Shown piece after piece: positions 8,920 through 22,312 of a stretch of 32,000 nucleotides of DNA; position 1 is the stretch's first letter, and each line of letters opens with the position of its first letter. Under the pieces are notes generated by a model. It had not been told where the DNA came from. It saw nothing but the letters and a program-made list of their open reading frames with translations, and searched no databases. The position numbers and the translations under genes were made by a program. Source of the DNA: Nitrosococcus oceani ATCC 19707 (GTDB taxonomy: Bacteria; Pseudomonadota; Gammaproteobacteria; Nitrosococcales; Nitrosococcaceae). The stretch is from assembly GCF_000012805.1 (NCBI RefSeq), contig NC_007484.1, forward strand, positions 600,001 to 632,000, read 5' to 3'.

Positions 8920-9340
8920 CCGCTAGCATTTTCCGATTATAAAAAAGCTTTTCACGAATTCCCAGCCCTTTCTCTATAACGACCTGCGCTTTGTATTAAT
9001 GCGCAAGCCGTCGCCATCAAGTTTTGGTGACAGGGGCAACGATTTTTTATTTTTGCAAGCATGCCTCAATAAATTGAGCTACCGTTTTAATTGCTGCTTT
9101 TAGAAACCGTAACTGCCCTCCCACCTACCCAGCCTCCGCGTTGAATGTGCGCTACTGCCATTGCCCTAGGTTGAGAAATTCGCGAGCCGTATCGTTCTCA
9201 ATTTTCTCTTATAGACTTCCTGCTTCAGATGATTAAAGTTTGCTGGTAAAAAGACGAAATTAATGAAAACTAGCCTATCATTTTTGATATTTCGGTAGGT
9301 AATGTTTTAACGAATATGCAGGCAAACTCGCCTGAATTTT

Positions 9341-9491
9341 AAGTTGATATCAAGTTATCAAAGCAAATTCACCTAAAAATAAAGTTATCATGGCAAAGAT
9401 GCCTAATTTACTAGCTAATATCAACTTATCAGGGCGTATATGCTTGAGAATAAGTTGTTCGCGCCACTGCGCGGCGCGAATCGGGGAGTTG
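9341..9491 (+). promoter_or_regulatory. Array-proximal repeat cluster plus an orphan 5' half of a long attC-like site
   Basis: Repeat copies: AAGTTGATA 9341-9349, AAGTTATCA 9352-9360 and 9382-9390, CAACTTATCA 9422-9431, and inverted ATAAGTTG 9450-9457. An 8-bp hairpin pairs TTCGCGCC (9458-9465) with GGCGCGAA (9473-9480). The 21 nt GCGGCGCGAATCGGGGAGTTG at 9471-9491 are identical to 18640-18660. Confidence 0.5.
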
Positions 9492-9500
9492 GAGAATTAA

Positions 9501-9947
9501 ATGAAAGCTGATTTAGAGGGTTTGCTCTCGGCGATAAGGAATTACAGTCAAAATTATCGAAATTCTACGATGTATCCGCTTGAAGTAGCAGAGCCGTACG
9601 ACATGTCGCCTGAGCGCGACCGAACACCTGTGAAATGTAATGCCCAATGGCCGGAAATTTGGCCCCATGCTGCTCGTGCTGGAATATATGCTTTTCTGAA
9701 TGAAGACTCGGAAGTGATTTATGTCGGCAAGGCTTCACTCAGGAATTCTTTGGGCGCGCGCATCTCATCATATTGTGGTTACGGCGCTGATAGAGAGTGC
9801 CGCTTCTACGGCGAATGGAGAAGTCCTCCCCGCTACGTTTTAGTTGTTGCAGTTCCCGATGAAACTCGCTTTGAAGCGCCCGCTCTTGAGGAGTATCTAA
9901 TCCGTGAGTTACAGCCAAGCGACAATTCGGCTGGAATCGAGCGTTAA
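9501..9947 (+). CDS. GIY-YIG nuclease-domain protein (cassette 1)
   Basis: GIYAFLNEDSEVIYVGKA gives the GIY-x10-YVG motif. A downstream Arg (LGARISSY) and the EEYLIRELQPSDN Glu/Asn region follow. A GGAG SD lies 8 nt upstream of the ATG. Confidence 0.75.
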   Translation: MKADLEGLLSAIRNYSQNYRNSTMYPLEVAEPYDMSPERDRTPVKCNAQWPEIWPHAARAGIYAFLNEDSEVIYVGKASLRNSLGARISSYCGYGADRECRFYGEWRSPPRYVLVVAVPDETRFEAPALEEYLIRELQPSDNSAGIER

Positions 9948-10106: not shown

Positions 10107-11528
10107 GTGAAAAGACCTGACTACTTGTCATCCGGCGAGCTCGGTCGCCTGATCCCTGTAGCGACAAAGCCCGAGCTCAGAAATACCTGCGTCACCTCAG
10201 CCATGCTCATGGCTGTTGAAGAATTCGCAGAGGCGCTTTTAGGGGCTTTGGGTGCCCCAACCGGCAAACGCGCCAAAACTCACGTTTGGCTTGAACCGGT
10301 GTTTAAATCCTCCAAAAACGACAACAAAGATCGTCCGGATGCCCTGATTATCGTAAATAACGGTCGGCGGGAATGGCGAGCGTTAATGGAGGCGAAGGCC
10401 AAGGGTGCTGATCTGGATGCCGACCAAATTGAGTGCTACTTGGACATCGCCAAAGTCCAAGGTGTGGATGCCGTTGTGACCATTTCCAACCAGTTTGTTG
10501 CAACGCCCACTCAATCGCCCTGCGACATCAACCGGCAGAAGTTGAAAAAGGTGGCTCTGTTTCACTGGTCGTGGTCTTTCCTTCAGACAGAAGCAAAAAT
10601 TCAGCTTTCAAAGAGCGCGGTTTCTGATCCAGATCAGGCTTACATGCTCGAGGAGTACGTCCGCTACCTCGAACACGATTCATCTGGTGTCAGTGAATTC
10701 GAGCAAATGGGCAAGGAATGGGTCGAAGCTTGCAAGCTCTATTTCGCTAAATCCAAACTCGACAAAAAATCCCCGATGGGGGCTGCTGTCGTAAGCGACT
10801 GGGACGAGCTGATGCGTTGTACCGCTCTCCTGATGAGTCGAAATTTGGAAACAAACGTGACGACGGTGCTAAGCGCGAAGGAGAGGAAAGATCCGAATGG
10901 CCGTTCGGAGTCCATGCAAAGTTCGTTTGTTTCTTCGGGGGAACTTAAAAGCCGATTGGAAATTCCCGATGCGGCTTCGCCAATTTCTGTTGAAGCGGAC
11001 CTGACCCGACGTTCTGTTACGGTTTCTATGACCGTAGATGCGCCAAGGGACAAGAAAAGGGCTCCTGCAACGGTTACATGGCTGCTGCGCCAACTCGTCA
11101 AAACTGAGGATGGCAGCATTATGTTGGTTGCCAAATGGCCAGGCCGCACGCAGGACACTTGTGCAGAACTCGTAAAAGTTAGAGAAGACGTCGATGCTTT
11201 GGTGGGGGATAGAAAAGGTCAACTCCCTCGCACTTTTGAAATACGGGCAGTATCGGACCTCGGTGGAAAATTCACGCAACGGCGTAATTTCGTGCCGGAA
11301 TTGGTGTCGTGCGTCACGCGATTTTATGAAGCCGTCGGGCAGTATGTTGTTCCGTGGCAGGCACCTCCCCCCAAGCCCAAGAAGCCGGTACAAGTAGAAG
11401 AATCCTCTGAAGAAAGTACAGGCCCAGAGGCTGGAGAAATCAGTGCCCAACAAATCGCTCCAGGTGCGTTTGAGGCGTCGGCTATTTTTGCATGCGCAAA
11501 AATAGCCGACGCCTCAAACGTCACCTGA
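10107..11528 (+). CDS. Uncharacterised 473-aa protein with an N-terminal PD-(D/E)xK (Mrr-like) nuclease motif (cassette 2)
   Basis: DRPDALIIVNNGRREWRALMEAKAKG gives PD...E-A-K, followed by VDAVVTISNQF. The C-terminal roughly 270 aa is not recognised. GTG start with GGGAG 6 nt upstream. Confidence 0.6.
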   Translation: MKRPDYLSSGELGRLIPVATKPELRNTCVTSAMLMAVEEFAEALLGALGAPTGKRAKTHVWLEPVFKSSKNDNKDRPDALIIVNNGRREWRALMEAKAKGADLDADQIECYLDIAKVQGVDAVVTISNQFVATPTQSPCDINRQKLKKVALFHWSWSFLQTEAKIQLSKSAVSDPDQAYMLEEYVRYLEHDSSGVSEFEQMGKEWVEACKLYFAKSKLDKKSPMGAAVVSDWDELMRCTALLMSRNLETNVTTVLSAKERKDPNGRSESMQSSFVSSGELKSRLEIPDAASPISVEADLTRRSVTVSMTVDAPRDKKRAPATVTWLLRQLVKTEDGSIMLVAKWPGRTQDTCAELVKVREDVDALVGDRKGQLPRTFEIRAVSDLGGKFTQRRNFVPELVSCVTRFYEAVGQYVVPWQAPPPKPKKPVQVEESSEESTGPEAGEISAQQIAPGAFEASAIFACAKIADASNVT

Positions 11529-11543
11529 TCTCGGTCGTTATAC
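11445..11543 (+). repeat. attC site (99 bp) embedded in the 3' end of the preceding CDS
   Basis: GCCCAAC (a perfect RYYYAAC) at 11445-11451 and GTTATAC at 11537-11543. The 5' box AACAAATCGCTCCAGGTG closely matches the other sites (AACAAATCGCTGCAGTTG). The centre is a perfect 25-bp inverted repeat (11467-11491 / 11496-11520) with a 4-nt loop. Confidence 0.7.
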
Positions 11544-11678: not shown

Positions 11679-11888
11679 GTGGAGGTTCCAGACGAGTGGC
11701 AAGCGTTCCCACCGGCACTTCTACCTCCCCAGGGATATGCGGAGGTATTTATCTATTCAGGCAATGATGCCCGAGATGCTTTAACACGGTTGGAGCTAAT
11801 CGTTCACCTTGACGGCGGAAGCATCTTATACAAAAAAGCCGACTCTGATTCGGTTGGAATTAGAGTAACTTGGCCTGATGAAGCATAA
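11679..11888 (+). CDS. Hypothetical 69-aa cassette protein
   Basis: GTG-initiated ORF whose TAA stop lies inside the GCATAAC box of the next site, as is typical for cassette ORFs. No recognisable family. Confidence 0.4.
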   Translation: MEVPDEWQAFPPALLPPQGYAEVFIYSGNDARDALTRLELIVHLDGGSILYKKADSDSVGIRVTWPDEA

Positions 11889-12029
11889 CGAAACGCTGCA
11901 GTTGACCGCCCAAAGCGCTGGCGCGCTTTCGCCTCGCGAACAACCGTTCGACGGGAAGAACCTTCTGCATAATCAGATGCCGCACATCCATTATCCAGGA
12001 GAACCCGCCGGTCAACTCCCCGATTATGC
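11883..12029 (+). repeat. Long attC-like site, copy A (147 bp; conserved module 11934-12029)
   Basis: The 5' half is canonical (GCATAAC gaaacgctgc AGTTGACCG). The 3' part is the conserved 96-nt module ending CGGTCAACT ccccg ATTATGC. AGTTGACCG pairs with CGGTCAACT, and GCATAA pairs with TTATGC. Confidence 0.65.
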
Positions 12030-12055
12030 CACAGAATCAAAAAGAGCCATGAAAG

Positions 12056-13751
12056 ATGGAAGCCTCAACAACTATTAGAAAGATGATGGCAGGCAACAAA
12101 ATTGTCGTACCTGCATATCAGCGTGCGTATTCGTGGGATACGCCGATGGAGAAATCAGACAGAAACACGCAAACAGATGTGTTCGTGTCGGATTTAGAGA
12201 AATACAGCAGAAGTAACGCAACTAGTCCCTATTACTTTGGGCCATTTCCTTTTTGAGGAGAAAACACAAAAGTTCAATGTAATAGACGGCCAGCAACGCT
12301 TAACAACCATTGTCATTTTCTTATCGGTCCTGTTTGCCCAGCTGAAATCAATAAGAGATTTATCGGAGGAAGAAGAAATATGCTATGAAGATATGGTGAA
12401 GAGGCGAAGCGCAATACGCTTTTGGACTGTTGACTACGATAATCAATTGTTCATTGACTATGTAATAGACCAAAGCAAGTCTGAACATAATGGCCTTGAA
12501 ACGGAATCGTCACGACGAATCGTCAGCGCATTCGACTTTTTCAAAAATCATCTTTCTGATAAACCAGAAGAGTATCTAACAAAAATGCTGTTGATTGTTG
12601 CTGGGGCAGCTTGTACCACGCACCCGGTTCAAAATGAATCGGAGGCGATACAGATGTTTATCTTTCAAAATAGTCGCGGAAAACGACCGTCAAATCTTGA
12701 AATAGTGAAAGCCCAATTCATGCATCATGCTCACCTGCATGGGGGCGCCAAAGATGAAGTTGATTCGTTAATTGGTGAAATCAAAGGGCGTTTTGAAAAA
12801 ATCTACAAATCAATTTCTTCAATCGAATACAGAATTAATGAAGATGATGTTTTGCTATACACCTTGCGGGTTCACTTTAACTCGCTCTGGGAAACAAACT
12901 CTTTAGACAAAATCAACAAGATGTTGGCCGATGGAAATCCACTTGATTTCATCAAGTCGTTCTCGAGGTCGCTCTCGACAAGTTTTGAACATCTGTCACA
13001 GTTTTTTGGCAAGCATGAGAGAGAAAACTTTGCGATTCATTCTCTAATATCACTAGGCGGGATAGCTGTTGCGCTTCCATTTGTCATTAAGGCATACAGA
13101 TATGGCTTGTCTCTTGATCAAATTGGCAAACTTTGCTGGTCTTTGGAATCTTTAGTGCTTCGGCATCGTTTAATCGGGACAAGGGCAAATATTATTTCAA
13201 GAATCAACGATGTATTCGAGAAATTCACCGAAAGCAACAAAGACATTTCCCCAGTAATTGACCATATTGAATGGATGAAGACGACAGATGATTGGTGGTG
13301 GGCCTACTGGAACAATGACAGGTTGAAAGAATCCATCCAAGGAGGAATCAATCATTCAACCGCAAAATACCTTCTCTGGAAATATGAGGTTCATTTAGAG
13401 CAGCAGGGTAAAGCCGGTTATTCACCAATCCGGTTTGATAATATCATCAGTCCTGAGCTGGAACATATCGCCCCCACGACGGAACCTGAAAGTAAGCCCC
13501 ATGGCTATGATGATTATGACGATGAGTTCAGGAACCAATATCTAAACACTCTTGGCAACTACCTGTTGTTATCAAAGTCGCATAATTGCGCGGTTGGCAA
13601 TATTCTGCTTTCCCAAAAATTAGCCACATATACCCATAATGAACAGCAGAGAGAGGTGAGGAGCCTTGTTCCTAAAAACGGAATATGGAGCAAAGAAATA
13701 ATACAACAACGGAAAAATAAGATCATTGGTGTAATCATGATCATTTGCTAA
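12056..13751 (+). pseudogene. GmrSD-like DUF262/DUF1524 nuclease, frameshifted near 12239-12242
   Basis: ORF 12056..12256 (VPAYQRAYSW...SPYYFG) and ORF 12237..13751 (HFLFEEK..IDGQQRLTT...ELEHIAP...LGNYLLLSKSHNCAVGN) form one DUF262 (DGQQR) plus DUF1524 (His-Me finger) protein. It is split by a 1-nt shift in the TTTGGGCCATTTC run. Confidence 0.8.
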
Positions 13752-13756
13752 GAATA

Positions 13757-13829
13757 GCATAACAAAACGCTGCACTGGACGGGCTATTCCGCTGCGCTCC
13801 ATAGCCGCCAGTGAGCTTGGTCGTTAGCT
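13757..13829 (+). repeat. attC site (73 bp)
   Basis: GCATAAC...GTTAGCT with arms GGGCTAT/ATAGCC and CGCTGCACTGG/CCAGTGAGC. It is highly similar to the site at 9958-10030. Confidence 0.8.
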
Positions 13830-13844
13830 TTCAGAACGAGAAAT

Positions 13845-14807
13845 ATGGTGCAGAATTCAATATTTGTCGTAAATAAAGAGCCATACTGTATTTGGGAAAT
13901 TGATATGGCCGAAAGAAACGGTGAGTTTCTTGATGGAATCGACGTAAATTACTTTGATTATTTGCTTAATGTATACCTTGATTCTGAGGACGAAAAAAGA
14001 GCGGCTATTGCACTCAGGGCCACTCTGCATCATGCAATGGAAACTATGTTTTTATTGTTAGGCGCATACATTCAGGCGCCAGACTGTGCATATGCATGGA
14101 TAGCCAAATGCTCAAACAACGACTTACGGCAGTTAGTGAAAAATATTAGTGGCTATCACAATACGCTGTTTACAAAGCTTAATGTTAAACAAGTGTCATG
14201 GGAGTCTATTTCAAAATTAGTATTCCAATGCTACAAGCCCGATAGTGATAGAAACACACAAACAACAAAGTTATTTGCCTCACTATGGCAAAGATTAGCT
14301 CATGATTTAATTGATGCGAATCATGTTGACGAATATAACAGTATCAAACATGGGTTTAGGGTTCGTTCTGGGGGTTTTTCTCTCGCAGTAGGGTTGGAGC
14401 ATGAATATGGGGTAGCCCCGCCCGCTGAAGAAATGAAAATGGTAGGCTCATCCGAACATGGTTCTTCATTTTTTAAAATAGAACCTGTAGGGACATCAAA
14501 GCGCAATAGAAGCCTTAGATCCAAAAGAACCTCAATAAATTGGAAGATTGAAAAGGTTGCCTTACTTATTCAATTGGTATCAATGTCGATAAACAATATC
14601 GTTTCAGCATTGAAAATTGCCAATGGGGCAACTGCAGGCACATGCCAATTTCTGCGTCCTGAGGAAGATGCTGATTTCGATAAACCTTGGTCTTACTCTA
14701 CAGGCGTTACAAGCTGCAATATGGATTTTGTTATTAATGAAGATGATGTTGTTTCAACAACAAGAAATGAGCTATTGGAAAGACTTAATGAGCACAAGAA
14801 AAGCTAA
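13845..14807 (+). CDS. Hypothetical 320-aa cassette protein (AT-rich)
   Basis: Long ORF between two attC sites, with its stop in the AGCTAAC box. No confident family. It contains LRATLHHAME and YNSIKHG, weak HEPN-like strings. Confidence 0.6.
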   Translation: MVQNSIFVVNKEPYCIWEIDMAERNGEFLDGIDVNYFDYLLNVYLDSEDEKRAAIALRATLHHAMETMFLLLGAYIQAPDCAYAWIAKCSNNDLRQLVKNISGYHNTLFTKLNVKQVSWESISKLVFQCYKPDSDRNTQTTKLFASLWQRLAHDLIDANHVDEYNSIKHGFRVRSGGFSLAVGLEHEYGVAPPAEEMKMVGSSEHGSSFFKIEPVGTSKRNRSLRSKRTSINWKIEKVALLIQLVSMSINNIVSALKIANGATAGTCQFLRPEEDADFDKPWSYSTGVTSCNMDFVINEDDVVSTTRNELLERLNEHKKS

Positions 14808-14889
14808 CAAGGCAAATGCACTCGGACAGCAAAAAACGCCGCTCCTTCGTCGCTCTGCTTTTTGCTGTCGGTGATTTGCGGCGATAGGT
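14802..14889 (+). repeat. attC-like site with a degenerate 3' core (GATAGGT)
   Basis: AGCTAAC at the 5' end. Long arms GCAAATgCACtCGgACAGCAAAAA / TTTTTGCTGTCGGTGATTTGC carry three unpaired bases on the 5' arm. The 3' core reads GATAGGT rather than GTTAGGY. Confidence 0.65.
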
Positions 14890-14935
14890 CGGCGCTTCGC
14901 GCCGACCCATTATGGCTATTTTGGAGGAATTGAAT

Positions 14936-15376
14936 ATGGAATGCTTTATGGATCACATCGTTTTGAATGTGGAAGATAGCAAAAATATGATGGCCTTTTA
15001 TTCAAAAATACTCATGTTTGCACCCGAACGCCTGGAGGAATACGACGCGGGGAAGGTACCATTCCCGTCTATACGACTGAACTCGAATACGATCATCGAC
15101 CTGTTCCCGAAAAAGATGTGGCAGAAAGACGCTCGGGACGAGCAAAGTAGTGAGAACTTGAACCATTTCTGTATTGCTTTGAGTAAGGGGACGTGGCAGG
15201 AACTTTTAGAGCGACTTAAGGCCAATAACATTAATATACAAGAAGGACCTGTTCCACGATGGGGTGCGCACGGTACAGGAACATCCATCTATTTCCAAGA
15301 CCCGGAGGGAAACCTAATCGAAGCACGATATTATGAGGACAAAAATAATGTGGAAAAATGCCTCCTTGGTTCTTAG
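14936..15376 (+). CDS. VOC / glyoxalase-bleomycin resistance-dioxygenase family protein
   Basis: MDHIVLNVED...LNHFCIAL...GTSIYFQDPEGNLIEA matches the paired beta-alpha-beta-beta-beta VOC pattern. GGAGG lies 8 nt upstream of the ATG at 14936. Confidence 0.75.
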   Translation: MECFMDHIVLNVEDSKNMMAFYSKILMFAPERLEEYDAGKVPFPSIRLNSNTIIDLFPKKMWQKDARDEQSSENLNHFCIALSKGTWQELLERLKANNINIQEGPVPRWGAHGTGTSIYFQDPEGNLIEARYYEDKNNVEKCLLGS

Positions 15377-15419
15377 TCGACAAAAGTTGTTTTCGGACCA
15401 TTCCACACCGATGATATTC

Positions 15420-15596
15420 ACATAACCATGCTTTTGCAGCGGAGCAAAAAAAACTGCGCCCGCTAAAAAGCGACGTTACGGTTGCCTGCGCCGCTACGCG
15501 TCGCGAACAACCGTTCGACTGGCAGAACCTCCTGCATCATCAGATGCCGCACATCTATTATCCAGGAGAACCCGCCGGTCAACTCTCCGATTATAC
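15420..15596 (+). repeat. Long attC-like site, copy B (conserved module 15501-15596)
   Basis: The 96-nt module differs from copy A at about 7 positions by hand alignment and ends ATTATAC. The upstream ACATAAC box at 15420-15426 is a tentative 5' boundary. Confidence 0.55.
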
Positions 15597-15608
15597 GAGT
15601 AATCGAAT

Positions 15609-16133
15609 ATGGTAAATCTTGAGCAAATTCTCCGCGACCTTGATCTCTCCGCCATAGCGCCTGGAAGCGATAAGCTCGATGAATGCCGGTTTTTTCTTTC
15701 TGCATTGAAGTCGCAAACAGAACGTCAATTCTTCCGTTGGTATTTAAGCGCGTATCTTGGTGCGACTTATAGCTATCTGGAGATCAAGGCGCTTGAGCTC
15801 TATTTCTCATCCTGCGATCCAGAAAACGGCGAGTCGGTAAAAGACGAGGCCGGACTGTCAGTGCTTCGGGAGTACGTTCGCGTGTTTCAGGAAAAAAAGC
15901 GCCCAGATTTTATTAAGACTTCAGGAAAAGCTGAAACGGCAAAAAAACTATACGAGATCCGGAAACAAAATACGCACCTACGGGCATTACCGATAATGGA
16001 AGGTCCTGTGCACGATCAACAACAGCAGTTTCTCATCGGCGAATATCGTGAAAAAGGTATCCCCGCTGTTGAATTTTGCGAAGAAGTTCAAAGCATGCTG
16101 GACCAAATCGATGCTGTCCTTGCATCTGTATAA
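15609..16133 (+). CDS. Hypothetical 174-aa cassette protein
   Basis: ORF bounded by site B and the attC at 16128, with its TAA in the GTATAAC box. The composition looks alpha-helical. It contains YEIRKQNTHLRAL (an R-x4-H string). Confidence 0.55.
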   Translation: MVNLEQILRDLDLSAIAPGSDKLDECRFFLSALKSQTERQFFRWYLSAYLGATYSYLEIKALELYFSSCDPENGESVKDEAGLSVLREYVRVFQEKKRPDFIKTSGKAETAKKLYEIRKQNTHLRALPIMEGPVHDQQQQFLIGEYREKGIPAVEFCEEVQSMLDQIDAVLASV

Positions 16134-16202
16134 CAAATCGCTGCAGTTGACCGTCTAAAGCGCTGCCGCGCTTCGGTCGGCAACTGAGCTTGGGCGTTGA
16201 GC
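16128..16202 (+). repeat. attC site (75 bp)
   Basis: GTATAAC aaatcgctgc AGTTGACCG ... CGGTCGGCAACT gagcttgggc GTTGAGC. Confidence 0.8.
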
Positions 16203-16266
16203 CTTTTACGCAGGTTTCATATCATGAGGCATTGACGGTATGTAGCCAGAAGGCTACAGTTTGATT

Positions 16267-16555
16267 ATGCCTGAGATTCGCAAGACCGAAGCCTATGCCA
16301 AGTGGCTCGATGGTTTACGCGATATCCAAGCCCGAGCTCGTTTTAGTACGGGTGGAGCGCTTGGCAGCCGGAAATTCGGGGGATGTTAAGCCCGTGGGTG
16401 AAGGTGTTTCAGAGTTGCGGATCGATTACGGACCCGGCTATCGGGTGTACTATAAAAAGCAAGGCAAAAAGGTCATTATTTTACTAGCTGGCGGCGACAA
16501 ACGTTCCCAGGCCAGTGATATCAAGACGGCCTTACGCCTTGCTCGGAACCTGTAG
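16267..16555 (+). pseudogene. RelE/ParE-superfamily 'addiction module killer' toxin, frameshifted near 16339-16345
   Basis: Frame 1 from the ATG at 16267 reads MPEIRKTEAYAKWLDGLRDIQARAR. Frame 2 continues LVRVERLAAGNSGDVKPVGEGVSELRIDYGPGYRVYYKKQGKKVIILLAGGDKRSQ. Together they match the TIGR02683-type killer protein. The break lies at the T-run GCTCGTTTTAG. Confidence 0.75.
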
Positions 16556-16564
16556 GAACGTACC

Positions 16565-16918
16565 ATGACCAAGACTATGACTACCCCCTACGATGTCGCC
16601 GAGCACCTTCGCACGCCCGAGGAAATGGCTGCTTATCTAGAAGCTTGCCTTGAGGAGGCTGATGGGGACGCTGCATTCGTTGCCAAAGCTCTGGGCGATA
16701 TTGCCCGCGCCAAGGGTATGTCTCAGGTGGCACGTGATGCTGGTCTGTCCCGCGAAAGTCTTTACAAGGCACTTTCTGGCGAACGAAGCCCAGGCTTTGA
16801 CACAATTCTCAAGGTCATACGAGCCTTAGGCTTAAAATTGCATGCTGAAGCAGTTATCGTATTTGACTCAACGGCCCAACAAAGCGCTCCAGCCGAGGCT
16901 CGTGCCTCGCGCGGCTGA
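16565..16918 (+). CDS. Addiction module antidote protein (HTH, TIGR02684-like)
   Basis: YDVAEHLRTPEEMAAYLEACLEE.DG...AKALGDIARAKGMSQVARDAGLSRESLYKALSGERSPGFDTILKVIRALGLKLHAEA. The C-terminal tail runs into repeat C. Confidence 0.8.
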   Translation: MTKTMTTPYDVAEHLRTPEEMAAYLEACLEEADGDAAFVAKALGDIARAKGMSQVARDAGLSRESLYKALSGERSPGFDTILKVIRALGLKLHAEAVIVFDSTAQQSAPAEARASRG

Positions 16919-17050
16919 GTTTTGACGTTCGCGCCGCTGCGCATCGCTAACAACCGTTCGACTGGCAGAACCCCCTGCATAATCAGACGCCGTGCGCCTA
17001 TGTATGCAGGAGAACCCGCTCGTCAACTCCCCGATTGAGCTTGTAACCCG
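16908..17050 (+). repeat. Long attC-like site, copy C (conserved module 16954-17050)
   Basis: This is the most diverged copy. It ends ATTGAGC and has no clear ..TAAC 5' box. Its inner stem is CCTGCATA/TATGCAGG, where the other copies have CTCCTG/CAGGAG. The 5' boundary is approximate. Confidence 0.5.
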
Positions 17051-17075
17051 AGGCGTATCAGGTTACGATTCGTCC

Positions 17076-17354
17076 ATGATCAAGGGATTCCGACACAAGG
17101 GCCTGGAGCGCTTCTTCCGATCCGGCAGCAAAGCCGGTATCCAAGCCAAACACGCTGATCGGCTACGTTTGATACTGGCACGTCTGCACGCGGCGAATGG
17201 TTCGGAGGATATGGATCTACCGGGATTAGCGCTGCATCCTTTGAGTGGAGACCGTAAAGGCACCTGGTCGGTCCAGGTCAGCGGAAATTGGCGCGTTACC
17301 TTCATGTTTGAAGATGGCGATGCTTATGTTGTCGATTATGAAGACTACCACTGA
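17076..17354 (+). CDS. higB: HigB-like toxin (plasmid maintenance system killer family)
   Basis: [15 protein letters not shown]...[17 protein letters not shown]......[41 protein letters not shown] is the classic HigB-2 / PF05015 pattern. The start is taken at the ATG at 17076, not the ORF-track start at 16992, which lies in repeat C. Confidence 0.85.
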
Positions 17355-17364
17355 GGTTGAGGCT

Positions 17365-17688
17365 ATGCGTATGCACAATCCCCCTCATCCCGGCGAAGTT
17401 CTGAAGAGCTTGTGTTTGGAACCGCTGGGATTGAGTGTTACAGAGGCAGCGGAAGCACTTGGAGTCAGTCGCAAGACGCTTTCCAGTATTCTAAACGGGC
17501 GAGCCGGCATCAGCCCGGAGATGGCCATTCGCCTGTCCATGGCGTTTGGTACGTCCGCAGAGAGCTGGCTGAATCAGCAGTCGATGTTTGATCTTTGGCA
17601 AGCCGAGCGACGCGGGCCAAAGCCGCGTGTCAGGCGATTCAAGCCTACTCATCGCGAGCCCAACAATGGGTTGGAGCCGACACACTGA
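17365..17688 (+). CDS. higA: HigA antitoxin (XRE-type HTH)
   Basis: [65 protein letters not shown]. It starts 10 nt after higB. Its C-terminal tail overlaps the next attC. Confidence 0.85.
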
Positions 17689-17715
17689 AGTGCGCGGCTC
17701 AACCCACCGTTATAC
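17658..17715 (+). repeat. attC site (58 bp)
   Basis: GCCCAAC aatgg GTTGGAGCCG ... CGGCTCAAC ccacc GTTATAC. The arms pair with one extra G on the 5' arm and both spacers are 5 nt. Confidence 0.7.
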
Positions 17716-17732
17716 CGGATGAGGATACATCA

Positions 17733-18096
17733 ATGGCTATTTATGGAGTGGGAACAAATTGGGACGGAGAAGAGCAGAAAGATCGGTTTTTTTCCGAAGG
17801 AAAATTTATCCTCGGCTGGAATCAACGATCGGCCAGGTTCTCGGTCAATACGAGTGAAAGGAATTGGCATAGTAAAGCGCAGCTTGATGTCTTGCATGCT
17901 TGCCGGCGAATTAGAGGATAATGCTAGTAATTGGAACTCGCTCTTTGTGCATGTCGAGTGGTTAGTAAAAAAGGAATTCAAGGTCGAAATAGAGCCGGAT
18001 CACGGCCGCCTCACGAATATTCGGGCTGCTACCGTCTATGAAGAATATTTGCCCCAACTGCAAGAGTGCATCATCACTAGGCTTATAGATGTATAA
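17733..18096 (+). pseudogene. Hypothetical cassette gene, apparently disrupted (two frames)
   Basis: MAIYGVGTNWDGEEQKDRFFSEGKFILGWNQ (frame of 17733) appears to continue in the frame of ORF 17719..18096 (..DRPGSRSIRVKGIGIVKRS...VEWLVKKEFKVEI...YEEYLPQLQECI), whose TAA lies in the GTATAAC box. The junction is near 17830-17845. The homology is recalled only vaguely. Confidence 0.4.
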
Positions 18097-18165
18097 CAAA
18101 GCGCCGCAGTTGACCGCCTACGTCGCTGGCGCTCCTCCGGCGGCAACTGAGCTCAGGCGTTATGC
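18091..18165 (+). repeat. attC site (75 bp)
   Basis: GTATAAC aaagcgccgc AGTTGACCGCC ... GGCGGCAACT gagctcaggc GTTATGC. Confidence 0.8.
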
Positions 18166-18419
18166 CGACAAGAAACATGACAGTGAAGGCAACGAAATAC
18201 TTCCAGGCAACTCGGGTCAGACCGGATCGAGCGATAATCAAGGACGAATGGATTCAGCATGTAGTCCGGTTCCCTGAAAGAGAGTACATACAGGCAGACG
18301 GTCGAATAAGGCGATGGGCTAGAATTGAAGAAATGGAAAACCGATACCTGCGGGTAATCTTATTGTCGGATGGTAAAACCGTACACAACGCATTTTTTGA
18401 CAGAGGGTACAAGGCATGA
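18162..18419 (+). CDS. Putative toxin, DUF4258-like, paired with DUF2283
   Basis: 85 aa with ..RPDRAIIKDEWIQHVV.FPEREYIQADGRIRRWARIEE.ENRYLRVILLSDGKTVHNAFFDR. The ATG lies within the GTTATGC core (alternative ATG at 17 nt downstream, 18177). It has a 4-nt ATGA overlap with the next ORF. Confidence 0.5.
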   Translation: MPTRNMTVKATKYFQATRVRPDRAIIKDEWIQHVVRFPEREYIQADGRIRRWARIEEMENRYLRVILLSDGKTVHNAFFDRGYKA

Positions 18420-18613
18420 AAGTCAGCTATTTCGAAGACACAGACACGCTGTACATCGAGTTCCGCGACAATGACATAGCTGAGTCTAAAGACTTAGATG
18501 AGAACACTATTCTCGATGTGGATGCCAACGGTAACGTTTGCGCTATCACGTTCGAGCATGCAAGCCAGCGCACTGATGTAAGCCGTTTGATTGTCGAAGG
18601 CATTGCGGCATAA
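18416..18613 (+). CDS. DUF2283 family protein (putative antitoxin)
   Basis: MKVSYFEDTDTLYIEFRDN...ENTILDVDANGNVCAITFEHAS is the typical DUF2283 pattern. The TAA stop lies inside the GCATAAC box. Confidence 0.7.
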   Translation: MKVSYFEDTDTLYIEFRDNDIAESKDLDENTILDVDANGNVCAITFEHASQRTDVSRLIVEGIAA

Positions 18614-18794
18614 CAAGTCCATCCAACCGACGCCAAAAAGCGGCGCGAATCGGGGAGTTGACTGCGCTAAACGGCTGCCCGCGCCGCTTCGCATCGCATC
18701 GCTAACAACCGTTCGATTGGCAAAACCTCCTGCATAATCAGATGCCTCACATCTATTACCCAAGAGAACCCACCAGTTAGCTCCCCGATTATGT
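18608..18794 (+). repeat. Long attC-like site, copy D (187 bp; conserved module 18699-18794)
   Basis: GCATAAC at 18608-18614. AATCGGGGAGTTGAC (18646-18660) pairs with the 3' end AGTTAGCTCCCCGATT. The site ends ATTATGT. Confidence 0.6.
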
Positions 18795-18978
18795 GCACAA
18801 AGCCCGAAGCATTTGGTAGCATGATCCTGACGCCTCTAGGAGGTGAACGGGCGCCCATTAGGCTGTTCTCTGAACAGGCCCCGGGGGATGGGCTCTGCAA
18901 GCTCCGTCCAATTGGAAACTTACTTTTACGCGGTTGCGCCCGTGGGAGGCCCGGTCCTAGATCGGGCCTTTTGTCTTT
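18795..18978 (+). ncRNA. Candidate structured leader or non-coding RNA upstream of the reverse transcriptase
   Basis: About 185 nt with no convincing CDS and nested stems: GCCCAT...ATGGGC encloses CTGTTC-tct-GAACAG. A GC hairpin plus T-tract directly abuts the RT start codon. No SD precedes the RT ATG. Confidence 0.4.
18947..18978 (+). terminator. Intrinsic-terminator-like hairpin immediately 5' of the RT start
   Basis: AGGCCCG gtcctagat CGGGCCT followed by TTTGTCTTT. The RT ATG is at 18979. Confidence 0.5.
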
Positions 18979-20397
18979 ATGCCAATGAGATTCGAAGAGC
19001 ACCTTGAACGGGTCATCGCCGAGGAGGCAGATAAGCTAATTCAGAGATATCATGCTTATCACAACGCGCTTCACGTTGAACACCGTCGAAACTTGAAACG
19101 CATAAAAAATGCGCCGCCGAAGGTCGTCGAAGTTCCTGACTACTGGCAGCAGGATTTAAAGTTCAATCCGTTCTACGTTAAATCTCGGCGTAAGAGCATT
19201 GCCAGATCGATAACAAAGAAGCTCTCGAACAGCTCCTATACACCCCGGGATCCACACATCAAAGAGATCCCCAAACATGGCGGCGACGTGCGAAAGGTTG
19301 CCGTCTACTAGATCCCAGATGCCGCTGTTTCGAGGATTTTTTACGAGCGCCTGCTTGACAAGAACAAGCACAGATTCAGTTCGTTTTCGTACGCATACCG
19401 CAACGACCGAAACGTACACTTCGCCATTCAAGACATTTGGCTTGATGTGTCACGCGATGCCAGAGCATTTATCGCTGAGTTCGATTTCTCGGATTTTTTT
19501 GGTTCGATTTCCCATGAGTACCTTCGAGAGCAATTCGACTGCAACGGCTTTTATATCAGCGATGAAGAGCGCGTCGTTATTGACGCATTCTTGCAGTCGC
19601 GGGAGGTTGGGATTCCGCAGGGCACCTCAATCTCTCTGTTCTTAGCGAACTTGGTTTGCTGGAGGCTTGATCAGGAGTTTGAGCGGGCCGGCCTCAAATT
19701 TGCCAGGTACGCAGATGACACGGTGATATGGAGTCAGAGCTATCAGCGCATCTGCGATGCCTTTACCATCATCAACGATTTCTCAGCAGCAACCGGCATA
19801 AAGATCAACCCCAAGAAGTCTGATGGAATAAGCCTTCTTACACGTCCAGGTCTGCCGGCTGAACTTGCGAATACGAAGAGCTCCATCGACTTCCTGGGCT
19901 GCTCCATTTCTGTTAATTCAGTCGGCATCAAAAAGGCTTCGGTGCAGAATGTTCAGCAGCAGATTTCATATCTTCTTTATCGGAACCTTTTGCAGCCGTT
20001 GAGAGGGAAACAGCTCCGCGGACTTGTTATTCCTGCTAATGGCGAGGACCCAGCCCTCCTAACGGCGATGTTGCAAATTCGTCGTTATCTTTACGGTGGC
20101 TTGACCAGCCAACAACTCCGGAACTACATCAGTGGCCGGTCGAAGCGCATACATTTCAAAGGAATCATGAGCTTCTACCCGTTGGTCAATGACGAAGAAC
20201 AACTTCGATTTCTTGATGGGTGGCTAGTTTCGACAATCTTTAGGTCAGTTCAATTGAGGTCGAAACTCCTCAAAAAGTGGAAGCATGATCAATCGCATCA
20301 GTTTCCCTTCAATGTTCCGAGAGATGAGCTCGTTGCACGTTTCAAGGAACAGCGTATTGGGCGAAGTCGTCCGCTCGAAGTGCCGATTTTACCTTGA
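18979..20397 (+). pseudogene. Standalone reverse transcriptase (UG/Abi/DRT-like, not retron or group II) with an in-frame TAG at 19309-19311
   Basis: ORFs 18979..19311 and 19447..20397 share one frame and are separated only by a single TAG. RT motifs run in order: IPKHGGDVRKVAVY(*)IPDAAVSRIFYERL, FDFSDFFGSISH, GIPQGTSISLFLANL, ARYADDTVIW, GIKINPKKS, IDFLGCSIS. A C-terminal region of about 170 aa follows. Confidence 0.8.
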
Positions 20398-20489
20398 TCC
20401 AGAAGGCTCTAGAAGAAGGCCTTAAGGGACGCGGGATCGAGGGCGTAATGAATCCGGAAGCCAATGAATACAACTATTGAAGCGTCCGC

Positions 20490-20523
20490 ACATAACAAAC
20501 GCACCCGAGTTCAGGCGTTAAGG
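20490..20523 (+). repeat. Minimal or internally deleted attC-like remnant (34 bp)
   Basis: ACATAAC aaacgcacccgagttcaggc GTTAAGG. The two ends match the canonical sites (ATAACAAA.CGC... / ...GAGCTCAGGCGTTA), but the central arms are missing. Confidence 0.5.
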
Positions 20524-21011: not shown

Positions 21012-21316
21012 CTCATCTATGGAGCCACACCGGGCCATAGCCGTGGCAGATATATTGACAGCCCCCCTGCTTGGCTGATCAACCCATGGTTCAAGCTCGC
21101 ACTCGTTGTCGTGGGTCTTTTCATTATAGGTGCTTCACTCCACATAGCTAAATTCATCGCCTGCGGATCACCCTGCCCAAGCAGGCTAACCAGTGGCTGC
21201 TTTGGTTCCATCCTGCTATTATCGCCAACCTCAAGCGCCGTCTCTTGGGTGTTTGCCATGGCGCTTCCAAAGCCAGTGTACAAACATACCTCAGTGAATT
21301 TTGCTACTGTATAAAA

Positions 21317-22312
21317 ATGCAGCGAATATTGATCATTAAATTAGGGGCGCTCGGTGATATTATCATTGCGACCCCCCATATCAAACGAATCGTGGAGGGC
21401 TATCCCGAGGACGAGGTTTGGCTGCTCACCGCGCCGGGGTTTGCTGGCCTGTTTGCAGGCTATCCTAATCTACAAGTGAAGTCTTTCCCGAGAAAAGGCA
21501 TCCAGTCCCTGTTCCCTCCCCTAGGATGGATACGAAGCCAGGGTTTTCAAATGGTGTTCGACTTGCAAGGGAGCGACCGTAGTAAAACCATGGTGGCCCT
21601 TTCCGGGGCTGCCCGGCGCTACGGTTTAGGCCCAGGTTTCCCTTATACTCACTGCCCGCCTAACAAGGGAATTGTGGGCAAGGACGCCCATAGTTTCAGC
21701 CGCCTGAACCGGCTATTAGAAACGACGGGGTTGCCACCGGCACAGGCGGGTCCTTATCTTGAGGCCAGTGATGAGCAACGCCAAAAAGTAAAGGATTGGC
21801 TGGCAGAAAAAAGGCTGCTGGGAAGAGAGATCGCCCTCATCCATGCTGGTTCCAGCGCCCGTTGGGAGAGCAAGCGGTGGGCGGCCGCCCATTTTATTAC
21901 CCTGGGAACGATTCTGGAGCAGCAGGGGGTCGTGGTCATCTGGGTGGGCGGCTCGGAAGATGCTGAATTAAACCAAACCCTCTCCCAAAATATCGGTATG
22001 GATGCAACGGGGGATTTTTCTCTTCTGGAGCTTGTCGCGTTAGCGCGCCATGCCCGTTTTGCGGTGACCACCGACTCAGCGCCTATGCATGCTATCGCTG
22101 CTGCCGCTATCCCCGTTTATGCTTTGTTTGGACCCACCGACTGGCGCCGCAGCCATGCCGTTGGTCAGCAGCAGCGCGTTCTTGTGCATCCGGTAGCCTG
22201 CAGCCCGTGTTACCTGCCCGAGTGTCCCCCGCGGAATGCTCACCGTTGCCTGGCACAATTGCAGCCGGGGGAAGTGTTGGCACGCCTGCGCCAGGACGGG
22301 ATGCTGGGATAA
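21317..22312 (+). CDS. Glycosyltransferase family 9 (heptosyltransferase-like)
   Basis: MQRILIIKLGALGDIIIATPHIKRI... and ..TTDSAPMHAIAAAAIPVYALFGPTD are GT9 motifs. The ATG at 21317 is chosen over the ORF-track start at 21245. Confidence 0.8.
   Translation: MQRILIIKLGALGDIIIATPHIKRIVEGYPEDEVWLLTAPGFAGLFAGYPNLQVKSFPRKGIQSLFPPLGWIRSQGFQMVFDLQGSDRSKTMVALSGAARRYGLGPGFPYTHCPPNKGIVGKDAHSFSRLNRLLETTGLPPAQAGPYLEASDEQRQKVKDWLAEKRLLGREIALIHAGSSARWESKRWAAAHFITLGTILEQQGVVVIWVGGSEDAELNQTLSQNIGMDATGDFSLLELVALARHARFAVTTDSAPMHAIAAAAIPVYALFGPTDWRRSHAVGQQQRVLVHPVACSPCYLPECPPRNAHRCLAQLQPGEVLARLRQDGMLG

Follow-up and report, generated by a model that had tools for sequence, protein, structure and literature searches.

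Gene-less integron mini-cassettes with an ATT-type attC-like site: a probable new family in Nitrosococcus oceani and metagenomic relatives

We analyzed a 32,000-nt stretch of DNA (the window) from Nitrosococcus oceani, which carries a chromosomal integron array with a retained attI site. Four direct copies of a 96-base module lie in this array. A family of gene-less integron mini-cassettes probably has this module as its conserved core, each member being little more than a folded attC-type site with A in place of G, moved by integron integrase. An earlier note on this DNA had described a second, longer attC-like class ending in ATT. That description holds, as ATT lies at true junctions, one relative has attI and an intI remnant as neighbors, and all seven copies from four sources carry it.

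Results

A model of eight short attCs of the window showed compensatory changes in 8 of 11 pairs and also picked up attCs in unrelated loci, identifying the window as a cassette array. At its left edge, an attI-like region (9300..9457, + strand) contains repeated AAGTT(A/G)T boxes and has the 3' end ...AAGTTG|TT. Alignment revealed homology to the attI beside an intI remnant in a metagenomic locus, L024, with GCCTGA-TTT, ATATCAAGTTATCAA and TTGTTCGCGCC among the conserved blocks. The L024 intI is degraded, and its integron-integrase remnants match TIGR02249 (E = 2e-40 and 3e-24). No integrase gene was found within the 32,000-nt window, and the four strain assemblies compared were identical, giving no sign of current activity. 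The array also includes a canonical GTT-type attC of about 95 nt (11447..11541, + strand; 21.9 bits, E = 4e-4 with the canonical model R1) that folds at -41.5 kcal/mol (z = -11.1). Length alone is therefore no marker of the ATT class.

Repeat search and alignment placed the module copies, hereafter A to D, at 11921-12027, 15488-15594, 16931-17037 and 18686-18792. The earlier note had recognized all four, as well as their consensus and their endings (ATT followed by ATGC, ATAC, GAGC or ATGT), and its estimate of about seven differences between A and B proved exact (7 of 96 positions). Its placement of copy C at 16954-17050 was about 10 nt too far right; in register, this core occupies 16944-17040. 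The module is non-coding: C and D contain stops, changes between copies are mostly non-synonymous, no reading frame is conserved, and coding constraint is absent from the + frame of copy B.

Copy A is a composite site (11883..12023, + strand; module core 11934-12029) whose last base is the A of ATT (12023-12025). A canonical R''/L'' (GCATAAC...GCAGTTGACCG) and a small hairpin are fused to the module, as expected from its earlier reading as a hybrid with the 5' half of a canonical attC. The fold of its bottom strand (-34.4 kcal/mol, z = -3.8) includes the outer stem AGTTGACCG/CGGTCAACT. Copy B is a gene-less mini-cassette of 115 nt (15476..15590, + strand). Its first bases are the TT from the GTT of the attC before it (15475-15477), and its last base is the A of ATT (15590-15592). 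Only the inner attC-like layout is present, and the left end (TTACGG...) is unpaired with the copy's own R''. Copy C, likewise a gene-less mini-cassette (107 nt; 16928..17034, + strand), starts at G|TTCGCGCC and ends with the A of ATT (17034-17036). Its R' (TTCGCG) and R''2 (CGCTAA) form pairs at five of six positions, and the replacement stem reported for this copy is present as contiguous CCTGCATA / TATGCAGG. Copy D (18631..18788, + strand) is a nearly full-length module ending at the A of ATT (18788-18790). It consists of a left arm (GCGAAT-CGGGG-AGTTGAC), a second hairpin, an inner R''2/L''2, the conserved hairpin and a right arm, and is joined to the attC 5' half of the cassette before it (18608-18630); its fold is a three-way junction (-29.8 kcal/mol, z = -3.4). 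Neither A nor D has a clean left boundary, both being fused to the preceding attC.

In every case a gene follows the module closely, with neither distance nor sequence to the start codon conserved. The downstream cassettes identified are all toxin-antitoxin or defence cassettes (GmrSD, HigBA, DRT9, DUF433/PIN). Directly 3' of copy D, the cassette at 18791..20517 (+ strand) encodes a DRT9 defence reverse transcriptase (PADLOC Drt9 match, E = 7.8e-202) with a structured non-coding leader. An in-frame TAG occurs at 19309-19311, and a short attC closes the cassette, its R'' fitting the junction at copy D. This DRT9 gene is the sole reverse transcriptase nearby.

ATT was found in all seven family members, and canonical sites have AAC/GTT. 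The earlier note had assigned a G-first triplet to every other site. This was true of the ten other junctions whose triplets we located, nearly all of them GTT; the eleventh, after the attC at 14802-14885, is ambiguous, its triplet being G-A-T (14883) or, possibly, ATT (14909). The latter, a candidate fifth ATT junction (CCCATT|ATGG; 14909..14911, + strand), follows an atypical attC end (the G-A-T) and a perfect 9-bp hairpin (14887-14907), and in its TTATGG five of six positions agree with the R'' of the following attC (ACATAAC). Module sequence is absent there, leaving its status as a junction uncertain.

Across 14 junctions, the 4 nt after XTT matched the reverse complement of the next R'' at 43 of 56 positions, a value reached in 0 of 20000 permutations. 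The four ATT junctions matched at 15 of 16 positions (reached in 14 of 20000 permutations): 4/4 for the TTATGC 3' of copy A's A and for the TTATAC after copy B, and 3/4 for the TTGAGC after copy C. For copy D, TTATGTGC after the A and the next R'', GCACATAAC, match at all eight positions. The junctions of two relatives fit as well (ATT|CTGC vs GCAGAAC in L002; ATT|ATGCC vs GGCATAAC in L024). Since the bases after the A match the site of the next cassette, A|TT marks a genuine cassette boundary, and the A moves together with the module. The crossover thus falls between the first and second triplet bases, with TTRRRY complementary to the next R'', as at attC sites.

On the other side, the left junction is GTT in copy C, L002, L024 and at the array edge of the window, and wherever it is intact the left boundary of the unit is the crossover G|TT of an attC or attI. 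These GTT left junctions imply that ATT x GTT events, or insertions adjoining a module, must have occurred, though they are predicted to be inefficient. Two crossover bounds without a protein gene between them, the hallmark of a gene-less cassette, were found in L002 and L024 and in copies B and C.

Three further family members came from metagenomic DNA, giving a set of seven copies from four sources. Two independent relatives, L002 and L024, contain complete gene-less units of 159 nt running from G|TT to A|TT; in a further copy, L025, the architecture is kept and the second hairpin is different. The L024 unit sits right after the attI of the integron with the degraded intI. At the same position in the window lies a truncated left arm of the full-length module (9458..9491, + strand), TTCGCGCC-loop-GCGAAT-CGGGG-AGTTG (R', loop, R''1 with AAT, L''1), which matches the left arms of the L002 and L024 modules; a module model (R2) matched weakly at 9455-9506. 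The 21 nt at 9471-9491 that the earlier note had found identical to 18640-18660 come directly after the first G|TT of the array, and the repeat runs to 30 nt (18631-18660) at 87% identity. That note had missed the upstream left arm with its compensating AAT, and also the place of the module at the core of a self-contained gene-less mini-cassette.

A strict pattern applied to a collection of 185,579 species genomes found one other contig only, with the same sequence in JGI metagenomes. No module copies outside cassette settings, and none scattered, appeared in the searches run, which included both collections. In locus L018, an unrelated cassette that carries an ORF combines an AAC R'' with an ATT R'; its attC is ordinary in other respects. 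L018 also contains a GTT-type unit of similar design (1077-1237), suggesting that site-only mini-cassettes form a wider, undescribed group.

The complete unit is predicted to fold into a three-way junction with a variable second hairpin and a conserved third. Folding was more stable than chance (z = -2.3 to -11.3 over the copies), with three-way junctions at -63.9 kcal/mol (z = -11.3) for L002 and -66.8 kcal/mol (z = -8.5) for L024. In the outer stem, AAT is paired with ATT where canonical sites have AAC/GTT, the change on one side being compensated on the other; all five left arms (outer R'') carry AAT. The spacer of this stem reads CGGGG/CCCCG in N. oceani, two relatives have GCGCG/CGCGC there, and the terminal arms constitute a 15-19 bp inverted repeat (AAT-N5-AGTTGAC ... 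GTCAACT-N5-ATT). Competing with the three-way junction is an inner fold laid out like a classical attC: R'' (GCKAAC), 4 nt, L'' GTT[C]GAC (one base bulged), a long terminal structure, L' GGTCAAC, 6 nt and R' ATT. The inner R'' is AAC in six of the seven copies. The bottom strand is the strand recombined by integron integrases, and there the A of the inner fold yields a T-G wobble. The stem formed by GTT[C]GACTGGC and GCCGGTCAAC, noticed earlier, is real, and its bulged C is invariant. Also invariant are unpaired AGAACC motifs on both sides of the conserved hairpin, which a purely structural site leaves unexplained.

Structure cells were paired at 87-89%, compared with 20-44% when the 3' partners were slid by 1-3 columns. 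The earlier note had taken covariation, including that of copy D, as a sign of selection on structure. In copy D the changes are not compensatory: they comprise three G-T wobbles and three A-C mismatches, in the same numbers on either strand, as would be expected of random transitions in a copy undergoing decay. Nor did the four window copies plus one relative exceed the control, as their two two-sided pair changes were reached in 187 of 500 shuffles. With all seven copies aligned, the idea stood: 87% of cells in the outer stem and conserved hairpin were paired, six two-sided pairs were seen (4/500 shuffles), and no shuffle of 500 reached the covariation score, in a control that takes no account of kinship among the copies. 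Covariation among the seven copies is thus in favor of both the conserved hairpin and the outer stem. The N. oceani copies are partly decayed, with 2-6 of 26 pairs non-Watson-Crick per window copy (copy D being the most decayed, 6/26) and one such pair in L002.

We compared the modules with attC sites (59-base elements). Both occupy cassette junctions in arrays headed by attI or linked to intI (the window attI; the L024 intI remnants), and both are imperfect palindromes whose single strands fold into paired R and L boxes. They share the inner succession of R'', spacer, L'' with a bulged base, variable terminal structure, L', spacer and R', as well as a crossover one base left of TT and a downstream hexamer complementary to the next R''. 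The branched terminal structure of the modules is also found in large attCs, the Vibrio cholerae repeats being among the long branched sites (PMC2727003). The modules depart from the attC core, RYYYAAC and GTTRRRY with AAC/GTT triplets, by ATT in R' in 7 of 7 copies, whereas the GTT of attC has been described as its only fully conserved bases. Every known attC is regarded as having extrahelical bases and, at its center, an unpaired spacer (PMC2727003). A 4/6-nt spacer is left unpaired in the inner fold, where a single invariant C (G on the bottom strand) bulges out and no second extrahelical base occurs. In the complete module with its compensating AAT, unlike in attC sites, the outer stem is fully paired, with neither an unpaired central spacer nor an extrahelical base, and two alternative left arms compete for one right arm.

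The canonical covariance model R1, built from eight short sites of the window array, did not recognize the modules. Searched alone, they scored 4.9-8.4 bits, near noise, compared with 17-28 for unrelated canonical attCs and 49-79 for the training sites, and a whole-window R1 search returned no module among its matches. Despite the low score, their alignment to R1 was collinear end to end.

Discussion

These results suggest that a complete unit would be bounded on the left by the crossover of the preceding site, G|TT(CGCGCC...), and on the right by its own A|TT, and would contain an attC-type single-strand-folding recombination site and nothing else. Judging from the anatomy of the junctions, an integron integrase would have moved the units by cutting one base left of TT, so that the A would stay with the module and the TTRRRY after it would belong to the next cassette. 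The earlier note had proposed a different or lost integrase. An integrase gene is indeed missing from the locus. IntI1 does not read the first triplet base, and only its identity between partner sites counts (PMC2811028); nothing therefore requires a different enzyme.

Like other gene-less (ORF-less) cassettes, the units are cassette-bounded, lack a protein gene, recur within arrays and are shared between hosts. Vibrio gene-less cassettes measure 491-666 bp, have 335-515 bp outside the attC and mostly act as promoters (bioRxiv 10.1101/2023.11.21.568050). In the modules, by comparison, only about 11-17 nt between R' and R'' lie outside the folded site, which falls short of several hundred non-attC bases, and no sigma-70 or terminator consensus was present in any copy.

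The same kind of site could be present with an A that has no functional meaning, a tolerated lineage marker in N. oceani copies that are decaying relics. We regard this as possible and rather unlikely. With an inner AAC, a GTT exchange would turn the bottom-strand T-G plus C-G into C-G plus T-G at no cost, and the AAC of six inner R'' boxes, the AAC/ATT combination of the ordinary L018 attC and the GTT left junctions, which call for ATT x GTT compatibility or adjacency, all fit such a reading. So do the excess of non-Watson-Crick pairs in the window copies over L002 and the absence of an integrase gene from the window. However, the compensating AAT in all five left arms and an outer spacer that covaries with the right arm argue for selection on a paired AAT/ATT box. 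Moreover, a one-sided change costs about 300-fold with IntI1, in assays whose sites did not include an AAC/ATT hybrid (PMC2811028).

IS families that target attC sites are known, and the earlier note had considered a non-autonomous element of this kind. A MITE-like or IS1111-attC-type derivative, with terminal inverted repeats, insertion in attC and a transposase elsewhere, would account for the terminal arms, for several copies in one array and for horizontal movement between lineages. We nevertheless find it very hard to reconcile with the ends: no target-site duplication is present, the left end is a G|TT of attC or attI wherever intact, and the right end is an integron crossover whose downstream hexamer is part of the next cassette. 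The arms covary between lineages and offer no fixed transposase-binding sequence, the offset from the preceding attC is not the same in copies A/D as in B/C, the canonical attC model aligns collinearly with the inner layout, and the searches run turned up no copy beyond cassette settings. IS1111-attC elements and group IIC-attC introns also lie within or beside attC sites of arrays; unlike them, the modules lack a transposase, reverse transcriptase or ribozyme, are about 100-160 nt long and are bounded by crossovers. It is similarly improbable, in our estimate, that the unit is a regulatory cassette or structured RNA that influences the next cassette downstream as an sRNA, leader, insulator/terminator or promoter element, even though the unpaired AGAACC motifs are conserved beyond the needs of pairing, a gene always follows, and promoters of Vibrio gene-less cassettes are not predictable in silico (bioRxiv 10.1101/2023.11.21.568050). 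Rfam 15 gave no match in the window at gathering thresholds and none over any module at E values up to 10. G-T and A-C mismatches were equally frequent on both strands, showing no sign of one-strand selection, the spacing to the start codon varies, and the boundaries are recombination crossovers. The structured 3'-UTR or ssDNA element envisaged earlier thus survives in the ssDNA sense only, lacking an Rfam match, strand bias and a promoter or terminator consensus.

For the preferred reading, a mini-cassette whose A matters, a close counterpart is the engineered attCaadA7-ATT of Frumerie et al. 2010 (PMC2811028), which has the same double change, G to A in R' and C to T in R''. GTT is the sole triplet conserved between attC and attI (PMC2811028). 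With IntI1, an ATT attC recombined with a GTT attI at 3.1e-3 of the wild-type level, about 300-fold less, and ATT x ATT gave 1.0 (PMC2811028); attCaadA7-ATT equalled the wild type when its partner was ATT and reached about 3e-3 of that level with GTT, which its authors presented as a predictable change of integron target specificity (PMC2811028). That site is lab-made, a 60-nt class 1 attC assayed against attI1 with IntI1. The modules are natural, branched and 107-159 nt long, and, unlike attCaadA7-ATT, also bear an AAC-type inner arm.

By analogy with IntI1, strand exchange would need the same first triplet base in both partners, and ATT sites would recombine well with one another and hundreds of times less with GTT sites. 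Such low ATT x GTT exchange would weld a module to its downstream cassette, and pairs of modules could then excise multi-cassette blocks. On this analogy, a natural second compatibility class of sites is plausible. In these mini-cassettes, an A replaces the supposedly invariant G at the very point of exchange, a substitution that, according to published experiments, may have changed the choice of partner sites.

Results

The cassette array lies on the + strand from ~9458 to ~21000, between two lipopolysaccharide-core genes, one for an O-antigen-ligase-like protein (7711-8919) and one for a heptosyltransferase (21245-22312). Most of its cassettes serve defence or addiction, and they include a GIY-YIG protein, GmrSD, two toxin-antitoxin pairs, a DUF2283 pair and a DRT9 reverse transcriptase. 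No integrase gene was found in the window. A cassette protein of the array is also encoded in GCA_000155655.1, GCA_000740745.1, GCA_007990675.1 and a Logan assembly, all of which match the window at 99.99-100% identity across the retrieved stretch. Eight short sites of the array align as canonical attCs, with compensatory changes in 8/11 predicted pairs. R1, a covariance model built from these eight sites, retrieved a ninth, long GTT-type site at 11447-11541 and scored canonical attCs on unrelated loci at 17-28 bits. The long site forms a near-perfect ~31-bp hairpin (z = -11.1) and overlaps the 3' end of a 473-aa ORF; the only strong Rfam matches, all miRNA-like, fell on its perfect hairpin (11459-11529) and were dismissed as spurious. 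Two generic attC finders written in Python, one using constrained fold energy and the other an arm-pairing score, were discarded, as they matched housekeeping genes as often as the array.

Direct copies of the ~107-nt module were located at 11921-12027 (copy A), 15488-15594 (copy B), 16931-17037 (copy C) and 18686-18792 (copy D). The ending in ATT plus four variable bases that the earlier note described was confirmed in all window copies (4/4), and copies A and B differ at 7/96 positions. Copy C exists as proposed, but its coordinates had been placed ~10 nt too far right, the in-register position being 16944-17040. Copies B and C consist of the inner layout alone, as 115- and 107-nt units directly after a complete canonical attC. 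Copy D has the full architecture, and the outer arm of copy A is the 5' half of a canonical attC. Copies A and D are each fused to the site of the preceding cassette.

The identity of the 21-nt half-copy at 9471-9491 to 18640-18660, claimed earlier, also held, and it proved to belong to a 30-nt direct repeat (9462-9491 and 18631-18660). This repeat is the left arm of the module and brackets 9.17 kb containing most of the cassettes, an arrangement suggestive of a block inserted into a module. As origins of the repeat and of the A and D fusions we weighed replication slippage, integration of a circle bearing a left arm, and recombination at the GTT within AGTTGAC; none was established.

We compared the junctions with their neighbouring sites. 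In integrons, crossover occurs between the first and second bases of the triplet, and the TTRRRY that follows belongs to the next cassette and is complementary to R'' of the site closing it. Across 14 junctions, 43/56 positions matched the next R'' (0/20000 permutations reached this), a slightly low figure with two coordinates for the 11447-11541 site one base off, the real one being a little higher. The four ATT junctions matched at 15/16 positions (14/20000 permutations), and at copy D the match extends over 8 bases (TTATGTGC against GCACATAAC). The same rule is obeyed in two of the metagenomic loci that carry the module, L002 and L024. These matches indicate that A|TT is the exact point at which each module is joined to a different cassette, the A being part of the module. 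An A opens the triplet in 4/4 window copies and 7/7 members of the family, and at no other located junction except possibly 14909; it is thus an inherited family trait rather than a random hit. The earlier statement that every short site has G at this position held, since all other placed junction triplets begin with G, nearly all of them being GTT, with that one possible exception.

The junction in question (14880-14915) is odd. The attC at 14802-14885 ends in G-A-T instead of GTT and is followed by a perfect hairpin, GGTCGGCGC-TTCG-GCGCCGACC, and then by CATT|ATGG, whose TTATGG matches R'' of the next cassette at 5/6 positions. This may be an ATT junction without a module, the fifth of the array, or what remains of a deleted module.

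In both L002 (516-674) and L024 (7806-7964), the complete unit measures 159 nt. Its left part reads G|TTCGCGCC, an 11-nt loop, CGCGAAT, 5 nt, AGTTGAC and a second hairpin, whose 3' arm contains CGCGAAC-CAACC-GTTCGACCGGC; there follow AGAACC, a conserved hairpin, GAGAACC, GCCGGTCAAC, 5-6 nt and A|TT. Two folds can be drawn. The outer one pairs AAT-N5-AGTTGAC with GTCAACT-N5-ATT in a perfect 15-bp stem, which grows to 19 bp in the circularised unit. The inner one has on its 5' side R'' GCKAAC, 4 unpaired nt, GTT[C]GACYGGC with an invariant bulged C and a long terminal structure, and on its 3' side GCCGGTCAAC, 6 unpaired nt and ATT, in the order and spacing of classical attCs. R1 aligns the inner fold end to end in the classical register, though at just 5-8 bits. 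The unpaired AGAACC and GAGAACC on the 5' and 3' sides of the conserved hairpin form a direct repeat that is almost invariant in alignment A7, which holds all seven copies (15523-15528 and 15567-15573 in the window example); they could be a protein-binding site.

Arm changes in copy D had been read as structural covariation, which was not borne out, G-T and A-C mismatches being equal in number on either strand; their equal frequency on both strands also led us to reject selection on one RNA strand. Covariation among five sequences did not rise above the control. With seven, 87.8% of the inner structure was paired and 4 pairs had changes on both sides (18/500 shuffles reached this number), and the outer stem plus conserved hairpin was 87% paired with 6 two-sided pairs (4/500 shuffles) and a covariation score unreached by shuffles, figures that are supportive rather than proof since the shuffle control ignores relatedness. 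The clearest covariation lies in the outer 5-bp spacer, where N. oceani has CGGGG/CCCCG and two relatives have GCGCG/CGCGC, with three compensatory pairs. AAT compensates ATT in all five left arms. The window copies are the least well paired of the family, which fits decay in an array without a nearby integrase gene.

A strict 26-base pattern returned a single other contig among genomes of 185,579 species; JGI metagenomes yielded the same sequence. This first relative (L001/L002) lies on a contig binned as Verrucomicrobiota. Its module is longer and folds exceptionally well, into a three-way junction (-63.9 kcal/mol, z = -11.3). Further relatives were sought with a profile of pseudo-peptides from the module's accidentally open plus frame, and two more members were identified, L024 on a 10-kb contig of a Gammaproteobacteria MAG and L025 on a 786-nt contig; the minus-frame search found N. 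oceani alone. In L025 the conserved hairpin, the inner L pairing and the AATGC/GCATT box are all retained, and a different second hairpin occupies the same place. The module was not scattered in the collections searched, and the generic REP/MITE dispersed outside cassettes that the earlier note had raised as a counter-case was not encountered. Distant blastn against a plasmid collection gave nothing significant, and two viral-contig matches to a looser pattern (L007 and L008) were chance hits in GC-rich phage coding sequence.

The decisive evidence came from L024, where a degraded intI is present as two ORFs on the minus strand, one matching the N-terminal and the other the C-terminal end of the integron-integrase model TIGR02249 (E = 2e-40 and 3e-24). 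The non-coding DNA beside this remnant aligns through several conserved blocks with the left edge of the window array. That edge (9300-9457) is an attI relic with repeated AAGTT(A/G)T boxes, homologous to L024 7640-7806. The intI remnant and the homologous attI identify the N. oceani locus as an integron that retains its attI, with no integrase gene in the window. In L024 a full-length module starts exactly at the G|TT of attI, and the half-copy at 9471-9491 is thus the truncated left arm of a module in the same first position.

Rfam has no family over any module at gathering or permissive thresholds, and consensus scans revealed no sigma-70 promoter or intrinsic terminator in the modules. A protein-coding gene was rejected: the plus frame, open in A, B and two relatives and used here as a search handle, is stopped in C and D, differences between copies are mostly non-synonymous, and the minus frame is not common to the copies.

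Several observations concern neighbouring cassettes and loci. The DRT9 (UG28) defence reverse-transcriptase cassette follows copy D at 18791-20517 (PADLOC E = 7.8e-202). Its leader is structured, non-coding and ~180 nt long (18800-18975), with a terminator-like hairpin at its end, and the RT frame (18979-20397) has an in-frame TAG at 19309-19311. A group II intron or retron identity for this reverse transcriptase was ruled out, as the enzyme belongs to a DRT9 defence system that has a cassette to itself. Two overlapping ORFs, 12056-12256 and 12237-13751, make up the GmrSD restriction gene after copy A (12056-13751). The second matches its Pfam profile from position 44 onwards, and the split is probably a frameshift. 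In L011, a type I restriction-modification methylase gene is disrupted by an element of ~130 nt resembling a MITE (555-685), whose terminal inverted repeats measure 16 bp (GTGTCAGGCCTACACA). The element lies just upstream of cassettes carrying the L002-type module; these cassettes are part of a type I R-M locus, not a long array.

In L002 the module is followed by a DUF433/PIN toxin-antitoxin cassette, whose other examined contexts were mostly outside arrays. The informative one was L018, an unrelated metagenomic array with features of interest at 1-106, 1077-1237 and 1738-1810. There, an ATT junction precedes the same toxin-antitoxin cassette, and the attC of an ordinary ORF cassette combines R'' AAC with R' ATT. 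Hence ATT junctions also occur outside the module family. The unit at 1077-1237 is a GTT-type gene-less mini-cassette that forms a three-way junction and contains R' TTGTAG, a small hairpin and R'' CTACAAC; this unit of the same design suggests that site-only mini-cassettes may form a wider group.

Discussion

The modules have an attC-like anatomy, lie in an integron context and show crossover-type junction behaviour, and we infer that an integron integrase moved the module units. GTT, whose first base IntI1 does not contact in a base-specific way, is the sole triplet conserved between attC and attI (PMC2811028). Recombination falls to ~3e-3 of wild type when that base is changed in one partner, and the wild-type frequency returns when both partners carry the identical change; the attC mutant of that study had exactly the AAT/ATT pair found in the modules (PMC2811028). 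Genomic secondary sites keep the G as well, with the consensus GWT (bioRxiv 10.1101/2022.09.11.507474).

The reading that we prefer, and consider plausible, is that the modules are natural ATT-class sites that would recombine with each other and rarely with GTT sites. A module would then be hard to part from its downstream cassette, although the two could still exit jointly via flanking GTT sites, and two modules could excise everything in between as one block. Between one copy and the next, from A to D, the window array has blocks of two or three cassettes with ORFs, and the next module closes each block. Alternatively, the A may be neutral. In the inner fold, AAC with ATT gives a T-G wobble on the recombining strand, so that exchange with a GTT partner would be energetically neutral and the A merely tolerated. 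The GTT left junctions of the modules and the ordinary L018 cassette with AAC/ATT favour such tolerance, while the compensated left arms favour ATT-class sites over it.

A natural orthogonal recombination code, in which ATT/AAT modules ignore GTT, pair mutually and split arrays into mobile blocks, among other effects, seems to us unlikely. Were it real, multi-cassette blocks between modules would be excised and re-inserted as units, each module would be welded to its downstream toxin-antitoxin or defence cassette, and the attI-adjacent module of two related platforms would be a built-in landing pad for blocks. The site might switch between partner classes through its two competing folds, an outer stem with AAT and ATT fully paired and an inner AAC/ATT fold that looks canonical and has a T-G wobble on the bottom strand.

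The module is real and best placed within the attC and gene-less-cassette kind, not as a separate type of system. Branched terminal structures are already known from large attCs (PMC2727003). Described gene-less cassettes measure 491-666 bp, have hundreds of bases outside the site and act as promoters (bioRxiv 10.1101/2023.11.21.568050), whereas the module mini-cassettes have almost no sequence outside the site. No description of natural ATT-type attCs was found in the literature searched, an absence that is not proof of novelty. The family hints at a possible class of cassettes that are a recombination site and nothing else. Such cassettes might travel as selfish passengers or serve the platform as structural parts.

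GTT/AAC has been described as the sole sequence common to all integron recombination sites, and laboratory work predicted that a first-base change would retarget them. If the ATT-class reading is true, a natural family with exactly this compensated change would show the coexistence of more than one compatibility class of sites in integrons to be possible. This would bear on how large chromosomal arrays are partitioned and stabilised, on the joint movement of multi-gene blocks, here of defence and toxin-antitoxin cassettes, and on how many real sites attC-finding software misses.
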